A stretch of 64,000 bases of DNA from Myxococcota bacterium (GTDB lineage: Bacteria; Myxococcota_A; Polyangia; DRWM01). A program made the position numbers and the translations under genes. The notes below the pieces were generated by a model. The model did not search any database, was not told the origin of the DNA, and worked only from the letters and a program-made list of their open reading frames with translations. The DNA is taken from assembly GCA_041309365.1 (NCBI GenBank), contig JBFYZU010000103.1, positions 1,463-65,462 of the forward strand, in the 5' to 3' direction. Each line of letters opens with the position of its first letter. Within the stretch, counting starts at the first letter, position 1. This document shows, piece after piece, positions 17,184-27,613 of the stretch.

Positions 17184-18542
17184 ATGACTGAAAGCACGTC
17201 AGCGGACCAGGCCATTACCGCCGGAGACCAGGGGCAGGGCCACGAGTCGCACCAGGACGCGGAGTCGCGACCTGGAAATGACAATCGAGATGGGACGCTC
17301 CTGAAGTACTTCAGGGACATCACGGCACACCCCCTTCTTGATACCGAGCAGGAGCAGAGGCTGGCTCGCCGCATCGTGGAGCTGGAGCTGCGCGAGTGGA
17401 TGGAGTGCCTCGCTCACCCCCCCGTGGCAGCTGCCCTGCTTCCCGTTCTCGGCCATCGATTCCCCGGCCTCAAGCCGCGCATGCGCTTCATTCGCAGGGC
17501 TCATTGCAGATTCCGCGAGCGGCGGGGCAGGCTGAACCTGGCGGAGCTGGCACGCTACAGGCAATCGGTCGAAGAGCTGGCCCACGAGCTCAAGGAGGCG
17601 GACCAGGACCGTATCGTGCTCGACACGACCGAGCAGTGGATCGGGTCTCTTGCCACGGTCACCAGGCGCACTCCCGACGGCGCCGGTGGCAGGAACGGGC
17701 ACCACGGTGGAAACGGAAACACCCACCAGGCCGGGCCTGCTACCGTTCAGGCGGAGGTGACCATGCCCCGGATCCGCTACACCAGGGGAATAGAGGACGT
17801 GCATCGTGCAATGACCCTGGCCATCCGCAAGAGCCGCCTGGAACGGGATCACTTCATCTCGGCCAACCTCAGGCTCGTCATCTCCATCGCCAAGCGCTAC
17901 AGCAGGGGTACCCTGTCGCTCTCCGATCTCATCCAGGAGGGCAACATCGGGCTGATGAAGGCCGTCCAGAGGTACGACCCGGAGCGGGGCTACCGCTTCA
18001 GCACATACGCGAGCTGGTGGATCCGTCACGCCATCAACAGGGCGCTCGCGGACAAGAGCCGCACCGTACGCCTGCCCGTGCACCTCATCGACGCCCACAA
18101 CAGGCTCCAGCGTGCCAGGGCCCAGTACCAGATGCGCGAGGGCAGGACGCCGACGGACCAGGATCTGGCGCGCGAGATGGGGATCAACCTGAAGAAGCTA
18201 CGCAAGCTGCAACGACAGAGCACGGACCCGTCGTTCTCGCTGGACCGCAACGTGGGAGAGGACAATTCCTACAGGTTCATCGACCTCGTGCACGACGAGG
18301 ATGCCCACTCCCCCATGGACTGTGTCTCGTTCAGCGACTGGTGCGAGGAGATACAGAACGTGCTCGCTCAGCTTCCTCCCATCGAGGCACAGATCGTCTG
18401 CTGGCGCTACGGGGTTCGTAACGAGAACGAGCTCACACTCAAGGAGATCGGCGAGCGTTACAACCTGTCGCGCGAGCGCATCCGCCAGCTGCAGCAGCAG
18501 GCCTTGCAGAGGATGCGCCAGAACGTGAAGGGTCTGTACTGA
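17184..18542 (+). CDS. RNA polymerase sigma factor, sigma-70 (RpoD-like) family
   Basis: Region 2 ([15 protein letters not shown]), region 3 and region 4 ([27 protein letters not shown]). A 452-aa group-2-like size. Confidence 0.85.
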
Positions 18543-20766: not shown

Positions 20767-22428
<1,662 letters not shown>

Positions 22429-22533: not shown

Positions 22534-24918
22534 TCAGGCTGCCGGGGCGCTCCGGAGCACCTCCCTGTGGCTCTTGCCCGGGATGGCAGGGCCCACGATG
22601 CCGTCCGTCTCCATCCGCTCGACGATGCGGGCCGCGCGGTTGTAGCCTATCTTGAGCTTGCGCTGCAGGTACGAGATGGACACCTTGCCCTCGCTCGTGG
22701 CGATGGCCACGGCGTCCACGTAACGCGGATCCGCGTCCTCGTCATCCACCTGCAGGGCCCCTTCCTCATCCTCGCCGGCGCGCAGGATCTCCTCCTTGTA
22801 GCTGGGATCGGCCTGGCTGCGCCAGTGATCGGTCACGCGCTGGATCTCCTCGTCCGACACGAAGCCACCATGCATGCGCAGAAGATCCGACTGGCCGGGG
22901 GGCAGGATGAGCATGTCGCCGAGGCCAAGAAGGCACTCTGCACCGTTGGCGTCGAGCATGACGCGGGAGTCCACCTTCGAGGCCACCTTGAAGGCTATGC
23001 GGCAGGGGAAGTTGGACTTGATGAGGCCCGTGACCACGTTCACGCTCGGACGCTGGGTGGCCACGATGAGGTGGATACCGGCCGCACGAGCCTTGGCAGC
23101 GAGACGGGACACGGCGTTCTCCACGTCCCTTGCGGACGTCATCATCAGATCCGCGAACTCGTCGATGACGATGACGACGTAGGGAAGGCGCTCGTGCTGC
23201 AACGCCTCCTTTGTACCGGGGTCGTCGGGATCCATGGTCCCCGTGTCGGGCTGCAAAACCGGTGCCCCAGCCAAGAGCTTCTCGACCTTCCGGTTGTAGC
23301 CTCGGATGTCCCTGACGTTCAGATCCGAGAACATGTGGTAACGCCGCTCCATCTCGTCCACGGCCCACCTCAGGGCGCTCGCTGCGTGCTTCATGTCGGT
23401 GACCACCGGCAGGTACAGGTGCGGTATCCCGTCGTAGGGTTGCAGCTCCACCATCTTGGGATCCACGAGGATCAACCTCATGTCGTCGGGCGTGAACTTG
23501 AACAGAAGACTCATGAGCAGCGTGTTGATGGCCACGCTCTTGCCGCTGCCCGTCGTGCCGGCGATGAGAAGGTGCGGCATGCGGCTCAGATCCATGATGT
23601 AGGGGTTGCCGATGATGTCCTTGCCCACGGCCAGCGGAATGCGGGCGCTCTCCAGGGAGAAGCGTGGGTCATCCATGATCTCGCTCAGCAGCACCGGCTG
23701 CCGAAGGGGGCTCGGCAGCTCGAAGCCCACGGCATTCTTGCCTGGGATGGGCGCAACGATCCGGACCCTGGTCACCTCGAGACTCATGGCGAGATCGTCG
23801 GAGAGGCGCGAGATGGTGGACACCTTCGTTCCCTTCTCGGGCCGCATCTCCAGGGTCGTGACGACGGGTCCTGGATGGATGTCGGTGACCTTGCCCTTCA
23901 CGCCGTAGTTTTCGAGCGTCTCGGAGAGCCTGCTGGCCATGGCCGTGAGCTCGGCCCCGAGCTCTTCGTGCGAGACGTTGGACTCCTGGACGATGGGGCG
24001 CTCGAGCATCGAAAGAGGAGGCAACGTGAACACGCTCGGCGCCGGAGCAGCCGCTCCCCGCTTCCCGGCGGGTCGCCCGTTGGGCCTGGTGGGAGCCACT
24101 TCGGTCTTCGGGTCGAGATGGTGATGAATGACCGGGGTGAGAGTCTCGGCACCTGCATCATCTTCGTCGGGATCCCCCCCGAGAGCTTCGCCTCCATCGT
24201 CTTCGCGATCCTCGATCGGCATGGACAAGACAGGGTCGATCACGATCGTGGCGCTCGAGGCCCGACGGGTGATCCTCGAAACGAGGCCGAGCGCCGACCG
24301 ACCGGCCCTTTGGACGATGGCGATCGCTCGCCGGCCGGCGGCCATGGTCATGGCCAGAAGCACACGCGAGAATGCCCTGGGCCCGAGACCCGAGACGAGC
24401 ACCGCGGCCATGCACAGCCCGGCCGTGAGCAGCAAGAACGAGCCAGGACCGGCGAAAAGCCCCTTCATCCAGTCGCCCAGCAGGGCACCTGTCGCTCCAC
24501 CGGCGAGGTGCCCGCCGAGCACGAGCTCGCCAGCCCAGCCCACGTGCATGAGGGCAGAGGCCAAGACGATGCCCGTGACGGATCCGAGCATCCTGAGAGG
24601 ACCGAAGAAGCTCGTCTTGCGCACGAGAGAAGTCACGGAAGCGACCACGAGCAGCACTGGAACGAGCAGGCCGGCGTGACCCACGAGCTGGTAGAGCGCG
24701 AAGGCCAGATAGGTGCCAGCCGGTCCCGTCCATCCTCCCTGCAACGGGAGCCCGTCCGGGTCCAGCCCTTCGTAGCTCACAAGGCCGAGCATCAGGAACA
24801 CGCCCGCCACGAGCACGAAGGTGAGGCCCACCTCGACGAGCAACGACAGGATGGCGGCCCTGTCCTGCCTCGTCGATACAGAGGCCTCGAGCGTTCGCCT
24901 GTTCTTGGAGCTCGACAT
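22534..24918 (-). CDS. ftsK: DNA translocase FtsK/SpoIIIE
   Basis: N-terminal polytopic membrane domain. Motor domain with Walker A GTTGSGKS. C-terminal gamma winged helix. Confidence 0.9.
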   Translation of the reverse strand: MSSSKNRRTLEASVSTRQDRAAILSLLVEVGLTFVLVAGVFLMLGLVSYEGLDPDGLPLQGGWTGPAGTYLAFALYQLVGHAGLLVPVLLVVASVTSLVRKTSFFGPLRMLGSVTGIVLASALMHVGWAGELVLGGHLAGGATGALLGDWMKGLFAGPGSFLLLTAGLCMAAVLVSGLGPRAFSRVLLAMTMAAGRRAIAIVQRAGRSALGLVSRITRRASSATIVIDPVLSMPIEDREDDGGEALGGDPDEDDAGAETLTPVIHHHLDPKTEVAPTRPNGRPAGKRGAAAPAPSVFTLPPLSMLERPIVQESNVSHEELGAELTAMASRLSETLENYGVKGKVTDIHPGPVVTTLEMRPEKGTKVSTISRLSDDLAMSLEVTRVRIVAPIPGKNAVGFELPSPLRQPVLLSEIMDDPRFSLESARIPLAVGKDIIGNPYIMDLSRMPHLLIAGTTGSGKSVAINTLLMSLLFKFTPDDMRLILVDPKMVELQPYDGIPHLYLPVVTDMKHAASALRWAVDEMERRYHMFSDLNVRDIRGYNRKVEKLLAGAPVLQPDTGTMDPDDPGTKEALQHERLPYVVIVIDEFADLMMTSARDVENAVSRLAAKARAAGIHLIVATQRPSVNVVTGLIKSNFPCRIAFKVASKVDSRVMLDANGAECLLGLGDMLILPPGQSDLLRMHGGFVSDEEIQRVTDHWRSQADPSYKEEILRAGEDEEGALQVDDEDADPRYVDAVAIATSEGKVSISYLQRKLKIGYNRAARIVERMETDGIVGPAIPGKSHREVLRSAPAA

Positions 24919-25281
24919 CGAATCAGTGTCCTCGATGGTGATGTCATTCTAGATCGGGCAGGATGAACCGATCCAAAAACAGGATGGCCTCCTGGACGAG
25001 GATCGCGACCGCTTCTTTCAAAAAAAATGCGCGCCATCCTGCAGGAGTCATGCTGGCAGTATCCTATAGCCGATCACGGGCCGGTCACGGCAAGGGCGCA
25101 CGTCTCATCCGGAGAAACCTCTGGCACACATCGCAGGCGGGCCGGAGCGATCCTGCATCGATGACGGCCGGGGCTCTTGTCACGCTCGTGAAACTCCTGA
25201 CGACGCGTTCGAGAGTGTAGAAAGTGCATTCGATATTTGTAGTTAATTTTACCAAGTTGTATCTAATTATGCATTTTTGAG

Positions 25282-25308
25282 TTGACAACGATCACACTTG
25301 AAGATAAT
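25282..25308 (+). promoter_or_regulatory. candidate sigma70-like promoter (TTGACA-15-GATAAT) for histone-like genes
   Basis: Lies within the 530-bp AT-rich intergenic region upstream of 25449. Confidence 0.35.
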
Positions 25309-25448
25309 CATGCAAGATAACTGAGCGGATCCCGTCGATGGCTGTTGTCGTCATGGGAGCGTGAGGAAGAAGTGAATGGTGGGAGTTGGCTCCCGCCGGG
25401 CAGGTGATCCGGAGGATCACACTGGCAAACCAAAGACAGGAGGAAGTC

Positions 25449-25592
25449 ATGGTAGCCAAGAAGAAGGTCGCCAAGAAGGCAGTGAAGAAGGTCGCCAAGA
25501 AGAAGGTCGCCAAGAAGAAGGTTGCCAAGAAGGCAGCGAAGAAGCCCGCCAAGAAGAAGGTCGCCAAGAAGAAGGTCGCCAAGAAGAAGTAG
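25449..25592 (+). CDS. histone H1-like Lys/Ala-rich DNA-binding protein (47 aa)
   Basis: MVAKKKVAKKAVKKVAKKKVAKKKVAKKAAKK... GGAGG RBS. Built from tandem 18-nt units. Confidence 0.55.
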   Translation: MVAKKKVAKKAVKKVAKKKVAKKKVAKKAAKKPAKKKVAKKKVAKKK

Positions 25593-25615
25593 TCAGTCCC
25601 AAAGGAGGATAAGAC

Positions 25616-25741
25616 ATGCCCTGCGGAACGAAGACGACGGCCAAGAAGGTCGTCAAGAAAGTCGCCAAGAAGACAGCGGCCAAGAAAGTGGCCAAGAAGC
25701 CCGCCAAGAAGGCAGTGAAGAAGGTCGCCAAGAAGAAGTAG
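25616..25741 (+). CDS. second histone H1-like Lys/Ala-rich protein (41 aa)
   Basis: MPCGTKTTAKKVVKKVAKKTAAKKVAKKPAKKAVKKVAKKK. AGGAGG RBS. Followed by hairpin cccgg-atgag-ccggg (25766-25780). Confidence 0.5.
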   Translation: MPCGTKTTAKKVVKKVAKKTAAKKVAKKPAKKAVKKVAKKK

Positions 25742-25843
25742 CCGGCCTCTCGCCTCCCTCCTCTTCCCGGATGAGCCGGGCCATCGCATCGCTTCCCCCC
25801 CTCGAGTGCACGTGATAGGCTTCTGGTCATCGGTCGTACCCGC

Positions 25844-27613
25844 ATGGCAGACCCGCCCAACGTAAAGCCGGAGAACGCAGAACGGCTCACATCAGAGGAG
25901 CTGCGGACGGTTCGCGGCGCAGGACTGTTCGAGCTCTACCTCGGACGGGGCTGGATGAGGCACCTCATCATCTACGGTTTTCCAGGCATCACGGCCATGC
26001 TGATCGCATCCGGCATATTCTGCTCGTTCATCGCGGTGCCAGACACCCTCATGCTCTATGCCCAGCCGGCCTGGGTTCCAGGGGAGAAGACCGGGGCTCG
26101 CGTGGGAGTCATGGACGAAAAGGGCGAGTTCGTGCCCATCACCCGGATGCGCGTGACACTGCTCGACAAGGCTTTCGACCGCGATCGGATCCTGTTCGAC
26201 GGGAAGTCCCATGGGACGGTCGCAAGCCTCACGATCGACGTCCCGTCCTGGCCGGCCGGCGAATACGAAATGGTTGTACGCGCCACCACCATGAAAAACA
26301 CGAGAGAGGGCATTCTCACCGTGAGGCTCGACCCCGGATACGACGGCGAGAAACCCGTCATCACCCACGAGATGAGAGCCTGGCGCGAGCGGTTCGACGA
26401 CGAGGACTTCATGAAACCAGGGTCCCCTCTCGATGTGGAGCTGTTCGCCGAGTCGGGAATGATCGCCTCCAGCCTGCCCAACATCCTCTACGTGCGCTGC
26501 ACCGACCGCAGAGGCGTCCCGGTGCGGGCCACCGTGTCTCTGGCCCTTGCGCAAGGTTTCATCTCGGGCGAGCTTCCCGATTCGGTCGAGACCGACGCAC
26601 TGGGTCTGGCCGCACTGATCGTCTACCCCACGTACAACTCGCTCGTCCTCGACGTGTCCGCGCAAGAACACGGTCATGGACCGGGCTTCACCACGGCCGG
26701 CGAAGGCCTTGGAGCAGGCGAGGGCATCGACGCCGGTCCTGATGACCTTTCACACGACGCACCACCTGCAAGCGAGGGACGGGTCATCGTCCCCATCGGA
26801 CCCCAGGGAATACGGCTTCGAGCCCTGGTGCCGGCTCCTTTCGTGGGTGAACCCATCTCGCTGCGGGTGTACTCCGTGGGCAAGGACATGAACATGTTCA
26901 CGGACCTGTACCGGGAGAGCAGGTGGATCGCGGCCTTTGATGCCCAGGTCGACGGACAGAGCTTCGAGGTCGCCGCCCCTGCGGCGCTCGGACCCGGGCT
27001 CCACGTGGTGCAGGCCTACAGCTCGCCCGTGCCCGCCATCTTCCAGAAGCTCCCCGGGCTTACGCCAGAGCTTCTGAGCGCGAGCATGTCAGCCGCCCAC
27101 GTCTGGGTCAGAGATCGGGCCGAATCCGACCAAGACACCGTCCTCACCCTGGCGGGGATCCTCGCGACCCGGGGAGTGGACGTGGATTACGTGTCGCAGC
27201 TCACACCGCAGAGGATCGAGCAGGAGGGCGTCAACCTCGGGCTCGCAACGGCCTTTCTGCTATCGCGGCTGGACGGGGCGCTATTCCCTCCTCTCGTGGC
27301 CTCGTCATCCAGGGATCACGACACGAGCTCCGCGGCCACTTTGAGAAATTCCATCCGCACCACGGTCATCGTTGCGCTCGTCATCGTGTGCGCAGTCGTC
27401 GTGCTCGCCCTGGGGATATTGACCTATTTCACCTGGCGAGCCGGACGGGGGGGTGCCTCTTCGGAGGTCGCCTGCGAGACCCCCATGAGCAGCGCGGACG
27501 CCAGGTGGCTGCGTCATCAGGTCTTCCAGATGAGCATGCTCATCGCGGTCGTCGTGGGCATGTTCGGGCTTCTCGCGATCCTCGTCGCCTACCTCCGCTG
27601 GCAGATGAGCTGA
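25844..27613 (+). CDS. hypothetical membrane protein (N- and C-terminal TM helices, large extracytoplasmic beta-rich middle)
   Basis: TM helices LIIYGFPGITAMLIASGIFCSFIAV, VIVALVIVCAVVVLALGILTYF and MLIAVVVGMFGLLAILVAYL. No catalytic motif. Confidence 0.4.
   Translation: MADPPNVKPENAERLTSEELRTVRGAGLFELYLGRGWMRHLIIYGFPGITAMLIASGIFCSFIAVPDTLMLYAQPAWVPGEKTGARVGVMDEKGEFVPITRMRVTLLDKAFDRDRILFDGKSHGTVASLTIDVPSWPAGEYEMVVRATTMKNTREGILTVRLDPGYDGEKPVITHEMRAWRERFDDEDFMKPGSPLDVELFAESGMIASSLPNILYVRCTDRRGVPVRATVSLALAQGFISGELPDSVETDALGLAALIVYPTYNSLVLDVSAQEHGHGPGFTTAGEGLGAGEGIDAGPDDLSHDAPPASEGRVIVPIGPQGIRLRALVPAPFVGEPISLRVYSVGKDMNMFTDLYRESRWIAAFDAQVDGQSFEVAAPAALGPGLHVVQAYSSPVPAIFQKLPGLTPELLSASMSAAHVWVRDRAESDQDTVLTLAGILATRGVDVDYVSQLTPQRIEQEGVNLGLATAFLLSRLDGALFPPLVASSSRDHDTSSAATLRNSIRTTVIVALVIVCAVVVLALGILTYFTWRAGRGGASSEVACETPMSSADARWLRHQVFQMSMLIAVVVGMFGLLAILVAYLRWQMS

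Follow-up and report, generated by a model that had tools for sequence, protein, structure and literature searches.

Does the short run of lysine codons lying between ftsK and a membrane-protein gene encode two separate proteins, and if so, with which of the known basic proteins might they be grouped? A first-pass annotation of the 64-kb window (by which we mean the whole stretch of DNA analysed here) had read two consecutive tiny genes for histone H1-like products at this spot, and a six-frame scan confirms that the Lys-rich stretches of the window are these two only. Lys-rich, H1-like proteins are a known, and poorly understood, class of bacterial organisers of chromatin and other polyanions. 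To this class the locus adds a very small, domain-less form, encoded by a two-gene operon with unusually well-kept expression signals.

Two mini-genes beside ftsK

ORF1 occupies positions 25449-25592 of the plus strand, reading from ATG to TAG as a protein of 47 aa (MVAKKKVAKKAVKKVAKKKVAKKKVAKKAAKKPAKKKVAKKKVAKKK), and ORF2, also on the plus strand and also running from ATG to TAG, occupies 25616-25741 and encodes 41 aa (MPCGTKTTAKKVVKKVAKKTAAKKVAKKPAKKAVKKVAKKK). The 23-nt intercistronic spacer between them (25593-25615, plus strand) contains the Shine-Dalgarno sequence of ORF2, GGAGG at 25604-25608, which leaves a gap of 7 nt to the second ATG; ORF1 has AGGAGG at 25438-25443, 5 nt ahead of the first. 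Both reading frames were re-read from the sequence and the ORF list, and the two lengths originally given, together with a GGAGG ribosome-binding site before each ORF, stand as described. The ORF1 product is 55% Lys, with a net charge of +26 and a pI of 11.4; that of ORF2 is 44% Lys, with a net charge of +18, a pI of 10.9 and the N-terminus MPCGTK; neither has a single acidic residue. Taken together with the copies in relatives, these proteins are 44-64% Lys+Arg, with Ala, Val and Pro and no Asp or Glu, a composition resembling the H1 tail and in keeping with the earlier description of H1-like, Lys/Ala-rich products. That description also called for tandem repeats, which are present, and for an 18-nt unit, which is not: for ORF1 the periods reported by TRF are 15 and 54 nt (2.5 copies of the 54-nt unit, 92% match, score 237), and for ORF2 they are 12 and 39 nt (score 119), so that the arrays mix units of 4 and 5 codons (KKVA / KKKVA) nested in higher-order repeats.

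Small proteins of this kind are not directly searchable, since composition-bias correction drops every match, and the neighbouring 589-aa protein (25844-27613, plus strand; predicted to be a membrane protein, and assigned to no family in Pfam or NCBIfam) was therefore used as the anchor for finding related loci. It has 14 relatives among 5.8 billion proteins, at 51-55% identity, and a metagenome scan with the same protein gave one further locus only. The pair is conserved in marine deltaproteobacteria, a small uncultured group known from metagenome assemblies alone, and wherever a related assembly extends far enough upstream it lies between a divergent ftsK (22534-24918 of the window, minus strand; NF007615, E = 1e-150) and a gene for a membrane protein of 570-595 aa. 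Two related loci, L003 and L005, are spanned completely, besides that of the window. The order in L003 is ftsK (minus strand), a 94-aa ORF1, a 62-aa ORF2, a 575-aa protein, GAF-GGDEF, HtrA, DUF374 and aminotransferase IV, and the downstream genes of the window are the same set; L005 has an ORF1 of 94 aa and an ORF2 of 55 aa. The gene for the 589-aa protein is always followed by those for GAF-GGDEF, HtrA/DegP, DUF374 and class IV aminotransferase proteins, a lineage-specific orphan at the head of a conserved cluster. On the other side, a sigma-70 family factor of 452 aa with regions 1.2-4 (17184-18542) and CTP synthase (20767-22428) are both encoded just upstream of ftsK, so that the twin genes lie in a housekeeping chromosomal neighbourhood rather than in a mobile element.

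Comparison of these loci speaks to coding. All three complete copies of ORF1 (window, L003 and L005) encode MVAKKK at their start, and in L003 and L005 an in-frame stop precedes this ATG with no possible start codon in between. ORF2 begins M-(P/S/R)-C-G-(T/A)-K in the window and in L001, L003, L005, L006 and L008; C3, G4 and K6 are invariant across seven orthologues, most copies end in KKKR, and a truncated copy in L004 reads SCGKCGKK, which is a CxxC. The codons at this N-terminus carry synonymous third-position changes (ACG/ACC, AAG/AAA), and the layout of a TAG, 23-24 nt with (A/G)GGAGG or GGGG, and an ATG is kept in L001, L003, L005, L006 and L008. Together, the conserved N-terminus with its synonymous changes and the kept layout are strong evidence that the Lys frame is translated. 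The identical ORF2 protein has, in addition, been called on an independent Logan contig. We consider it very probable that both mini-genes are real and expressed.

That the AAG repeats are instead a DNA or RNA element, or that the true gene lies antisense, strikes us as extremely improbable. AAG repeats do leave all three plus frames open, and antisense frames as well; a 165-aa antisense ORF (FFLATFFLA..., 25292-25789, minus strand) runs across the pair, and a public call by one gene caller places a 68-aa protein on the minus strand of L007 (2-205). The antisense ORFs, however, differ in extent, start and frame between the window, L003 and L005, and are thus by-products of the CTT repeats, the L007 call being a sign that automatic annotation mishandles these genes. 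A conserved ATG that follows a consensus Shine-Dalgarno sequence by 5-7 nt is peculiar to the Lys frame, the start of ORF2 is conserved at the protein level, the promoter described below is directed along the plus strand, and Rfam gives no match at its gathering threshold across the window.

Nor is the pair a single gene divided by the assembly. The first-pass annotation had itself raised the case of a collapsed single ORF, and comparison of related assemblies contradicts it: every related assembly long enough to include this point shows again the stop, the 23-nt spacer containing a Shine-Dalgarno sequence, and the M-x-C-G-T-K start, and this recurrence, with the distinct N-terminus of ORF2, points to a conserved two-gene unit. 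The other part of that account, a locus prone to length variation and troublesome to assemble, is amply borne out. ORF1 has 47 aa in the window as against 94 aa in L003 and L005, complete copies of ORF2 have 34-63 aa, and the truncated copy in L004 has at least 80. The contigs L001, L002, L004, L006, L007, L008 and L011-13, and that of P0004, all start within the Lys repeats, and just L003 and L005 span the locus; with most related contigs starting there, we conclude that short-read assemblers routinely break at this point. Repeats beside ftsK thus break short-read assemblies, fragment MAGs and make copy number unreliable. The window itself contains an exact 37-nt tract common to ORF1 and ORF2, at 25469 and 25702, and L005 one of 49 nt, which we take as evidence of ongoing gene conversion between the paralogues.

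These same features lend some colour to an artefact, with one longer gene read as two ORFs, or with the repeat array mis-built: the exact repeat tracts run from 37 nt in the window to at least 60 nt in L003, the related short-read contigs mostly begin within the repeats, and ORF1 of the window is half as long as that of L003 and L005. We nonetheless judge such an artefact very unlikely. The stop, spacer, Shine-Dalgarno sequence and second start are found in at least seven independent assemblies from different samples, and an independent Logan contig, L002 (SRR28346262), is 100% identical to positions 25560-26639 of the window, 1080 nt that include, and so independently confirm, the end of ORF1, the spacer and ORF2. 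It follows that the architecture of two genes is genuine, and doubt is confined to the copy number within ORF1, whose 47 aa in the window reflect the number of 54-nt copies as assembled and may represent an under-assembled repeat.

Expression signals and flanking leaders

The spacer from ftsK to ORF1 measures 530 bp (24919-25448), and had been described as an AT-rich leader. In fact a GC content of 0.35-0.40 is confined to about 110-140 bp of it (approximately 25200-25340), the spacer elsewhere having 0.49-0.65; the window as a whole computes to 64.6% GC, rather than the 67% first quoted for the genome. Within the AT-rich part lies a conserved promoter block (25228-25311, plus strand), low in GC against the 0.646 of the window, which begins with an UP-element-like A/T tract (25228-25281) and continues with a perfect -35 hexamer, TTGACA, at 25282-25287. 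This is the sole promoter-like match in 24800-25950, where 0.3 are expected from shuffles. The -10 hexamer first proposed, GATAAT, is present at 25303-25308 and aligns with TATAAT in L003 and L005, but its 15-nt distance from the -35 is short, and the promoter scan prefers AATCAT at 25306-25311, with a spacer of 18 nt. The assignment thus involves either an unusually short spacer or a weaker hexamer. In an alignment of the three complete spacers the block is 73-87% identical to L003 and L005, as against 30-60% for the remaining spacer. A GATC site at 25291-25294, between the two hexamers, is invariant in the window, L003 and L005.

From this promoter a probable 5' UTR of about 130-140 nt (25318-25448, plus strand; the start site is predicted) would lead into ORF1, with three hairpins in the fold prediction (25321-25366, 25378-25397 and 25399-25426) followed by the AGGAGG. 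The fold has an MFE of -58.4 kcal/mol and a z of -4.47, and none of 200 shuffles is as good. Its central GGGAG/CUCCC stem is invariant among the window, L003 and L005, the loops being variable, and the third hairpin is kept in place with another stem sequence in L003 and L005. Covariation here is read from three sequences, two of them nearly identical: the UTRs of L003 and L005 are 93-100% identical, and their loci overall 84% over 7.4 kb. Promoter, UTR and Shine-Dalgarno signals are all near consensus and better conserved than the adjacent coding DNA.

Downstream of ORF2 the relatives carry the stronger signal. The hairpin noted there, CCCGG-atgag-CCGGG (25766-25780, plus strand), is present with a 5-bp stem, but it is weak in the window, where the region folds no better than shuffles (z = +0.96). 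At the same position six relatives have a far stronger, 11-pair stem-loop, CCCGGTCCCTGC-loop-GCAGGGACGGG, with 90.8% of cells paired, a share that falls to 39-55% in controls with a slid partner, and with two compensatory pairs; L011 has CCCGGCC-N12-GGCCGGG. The hairpin is likely a terminator or a 3' stabiliser lacking a U-tract. Beyond it, about 25 nt before the 589-aa gene, an extended -10-like element of the form TGnTAnnCT (TGATAGGCT, 25813-25821 in the window) is kept as TGCTAGTCT, TGATAGGCT or TGATACGCT in L001, L003, L005, L006, L008 and L011, from which we conclude that the downstream gene has its own promoter and that the twins form their own transcription unit.

The leader of ftsK, on the minus strand of the same spacer (24919-25075), has conserved features of its own. 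Blocks invariant in the window, L003 and L005 comprise ATACTGCCA, within the -10-like GATAGGATACT, and GCGCGCATTTTTTTT, together with an invariant hairpin, CAGGAGGCCATCCTG, that is followed by TTTTTGGATC and was flagged by the scan as terminator-like. These blocks could be an attenuator or some other regulatory leader. A match to sX12 on the minus strand of this leader scored 24.4 bits against a threshold of 106 and was dismissed as chance.

Relation to known basic proteins

Sequence searches with the twin proteins against Pfam, NCBIfam, PHROGs and the PDB gave no match at threshold. HC2 (PF07382) is the only Pfam model to give any signal, at 7.4 bits for ORF1 (E = 5.6) and 13.0 and 11.1 bits for longer orthologues, all below its gathering threshold of 40 bits, with no match for ORF2. 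Comparison with chlamydial Hc1 had been proposed from the outset; its model, PF07432, has no match at E <= 10 among the window ORFs and five orthologues, and the H1 globular domain, PF00538, likewise finds nothing in the same set. A word-seeded HMMER search with ORF1 yielded 6282 candidates, none significant; a profile of seven ORF2 orthologues retrieved only unrelated Lys-rich proteins at E >= 0.0035, none with an M-x-C-G-T-K start; phmmer found 0 matches to ORF2 among 1.84 billion representatives; and by exact look-up the small proteins of the window, L003 and L005 are absent from a collection of 15 billion proteins. Profile searches do not see genes such as the twins, and large catalogues lack them, so that surveys of nucleoid-associated proteins will miss them. 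Searches of the literature on small stand-alone Lys-rich proteins in delta- and myxobacteria, and on the peptide motifs, turned up no account of the family. Low-complexity sequence of this kind cannot establish homology to any characterised DNA-binding protein, and the comparisons below are therefore of composition and architecture.

The closest parallel is Hc2, a DNA-binding protein of variable size, built of Lys-rich pentamers that vary in number (PMC2848022). Like Hc2, the twin proteins consist entirely of short Lys/Ala-rich repeats with no folded domain, and tandem repeats in the DNA change their length: TRF arrays extend over both ORFs, and the proteins range over 47-94 and 34-63 aa. Unlike Hc2, a single gene product of 165-237 aa made late in the chlamydial developmental cycle, they are of 34-94 aa and come from two genes in one bicistronic unit, and the ORF2 product keeps a Cys-Gly at its N-terminus. 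Similar reasoning applies to the C-terminal tail of H1 and to the kinetoplast KAP proteins, which are also rich in Lys, Ala and Pro, free of acidic residues and predicted to be disordered or a single helix; by this analogy, neutralisation of DNA charge would be the expected mechanism, and the composition fits that of the H1 tail, DNA binding itself being a prediction. The winged-helix globular domain of H1 is, by contrast, absent here, AlphaFold giving one helix only, and the twin proteins, at up to 64% Lys, are denser in lysine than H1 and much shorter.

Among other bacterial proteins termed H1-like, BpH1 of Bordetella and Hc1 are both longer than 100 aa, and the twin proteins lack the conserved N-terminal domain of Hc1. 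The size of BpH1 varies through repeat deletion. Sperm protamines, too, are very small polycations without domains, and the cysteines of mammalian protamines make inter-chain cross-links; they are, however, Arg-rich and eukaryotic, unlike the Lys-rich twins, and cross-linking through the single Cys of ORF2 is speculative. AlgP and PhaF are bacterial polycations of Lys/Ala/Pro tandem repeats, and the KPAA tail of AlgP binds DNA in vitro, is associated with polyP granules, has been likened to the H1 tail and is a mutational hot spot (PMC9239181). Yet AlgP/PhaF has a 124-aa helical N-terminal domain, a strict KPAA unit and 25% Lys, whereas the twin proteins have no N-terminal domain, units of KK(K)VA / KK(K)PA and about 50-64% Lys (AlgP as described in PMC9239181).

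By composition and likely mechanism, then, the twin proteins would belong with the bacterial H1-like proteins; by the defining features compared here, they appear to be members of none of the Hc1, Hc2, H1 or AlgP/PhaF families. They are set apart by their very small size, by the absence of a folded domain, by a conserved bicistronic arrangement whose two genes evolve in concert, and by the M-x-C-G-T-K with which the ORF2 product begins.

Proposed function

Overall, we think it reasonably probable, going by composition, that the twin proteins are abundant polycations resembling the H1 tail and Hc2, acting on DNA or another polyanion. The locus would work as a self-contained bicistronic operon, in which promoter, structured 5' UTR, ORF1, 23-nt spacer, ORF2 and hairpin together direct the synthesis of what appear to be two paralogous, domain-less polycationic proteins. 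As read from the sequence, the promoter is of consensus type and includes an UP-like tract, the Shine-Dalgarno sequences also match consensus, and the 5' UTR is predicted to fold stably; the proteins would presumably be made in large amounts. Once made, they would act by bulk electrostatics, as do the C-terminal tail of H1, Hc2 and the KPAA tail of AlgP, probably being disordered when free and helical along a polyanion. In AlphaFold models built from single sequences, each protein is a single unbroken helix (pLDDT 88.6 and 84.2) that lacks any tertiary fold, and a modelled helix bearing a charge of +18 to +26 would need a polyanion in order to form. H1 tails are known to behave likewise, their helix forming with the polyanion. 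The most likely target would be chromosomal DNA, whose charge would be neutralised and whose nucleoid would be compacted or bridged, with RNA or polyphosphate as possible co-targets.

At the same time, the evidence is compatible with DNA, RNA, ribosomes or polyphosphate as the target. It is an appreciable possibility, albeit an unlikely one, that the proteins act mainly on a polyanion other than DNA, whether by tethering or organising polyP granules in the manner of AlgP or by associating with RNA and the ribosome in the manner of bS22, bL37 and bTHX. Very small, very basic ribosomal proteins do occur in some phyla, and the argument from composition is valid for any polyanion; AlgP, with its H1-like Lys-rich tail, associates with polyP granules (PMC9239181). 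On the other hand, the folded N-terminal domain of AlgP/PhaF is absent from the twin proteins, no genes for polyP or ribosomal functions are linked to them, the neighbours being ftsK and a membrane protein, and a twofold difference in length (47 vs 94 aa for ORF1; 34-63 aa for ORF2) fits a fixed binding site poorly. Such free variation in length would tie function to composition, not to a fixed fold or a pocket such as that of the ribosome. Assignment as a ribosomal protein of the bS22/bL37/bTHX type was rejected, with length varying twofold among close relatives and no NCBIfam match.

Two further roles for small cationic peptides, secretion as a leaderless two-peptide pair resembling bacteriocins, or service as Lys-codon leader peptides that attenuate the downstream membrane-protein and GGDEF genes, seem to us highly improbable. 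The twins are small, cationic and helical, without signal sequences, as such a secreted pair would be, and a hairpin does lie between ORF2 and the next gene, as attenuation would call for. Against secretion, they have no large hydrophobic residues and about 50% Lys, and there is no adjacent transporter or immunity gene. Their hydrophobic periodicity peaks at 75-85 degrees, with a moment at 100 degrees of only 0.03-0.25, and a peak away from 100 degrees disfavours an amphipathic, membrane-active helix. Against attenuation, reading frames of 41-94 codons, and paired ones, are atypical of leader peptides, nothing links the downstream genes to lysine metabolism, and the first of them has its own conserved extended -10-like element.

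Returning to polycations that act on DNA, two additional features of the locus invite speculation. The AT-rich promoter island might be a preferred binding site for the proteins, and so a means of autoregulation; and the invariant Cys of ORF2 might form disulfide or metal-mediated cross-links, as in protamines. Consider, for example, a two-component, protamine-like chromatin system in which ORF1 would serve as the bulk condenser and the Cys of ORF2 (a CxxC in L004) would then lock the DNA through disulfide or metal bridges. We regard such a system as doubtful. Were DNA binding and the role of the Cys nonetheless both true, the pair would offer a compact model for charge-driven DNA compaction, and would bear on the proposed bacterial origin of the H1 tail. 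The same protamine-like reading suggests that a polycation joined to a cysteine may be a recurrent, undescribed class of bacterial nucleoid mini-proteins, because L009 and L010 carry unrelated Lys-rich proteins of about 40 aa that end in CCCK. Such proteins would be largely overlooked by gene callers and protein databases.

This separate family (L009 5071-5192, L010 5074-5195) has the form (M)AKKKAAKKVAKK...KKMAKCCCK, with a C-terminal Cys cluster, and is also represented by P0021, P0023, P0025 and P0035. Its members, which belong to other metagenomic lineages, start with GTG after a GGAGG and follow a Peptidase_M50 gene; gene callers extend them upstream, apparently wrongly. Proteins that combine a Zn-ribbon with a Lys tail were found as well (P0016-18, P0020, P0022 and P0024).
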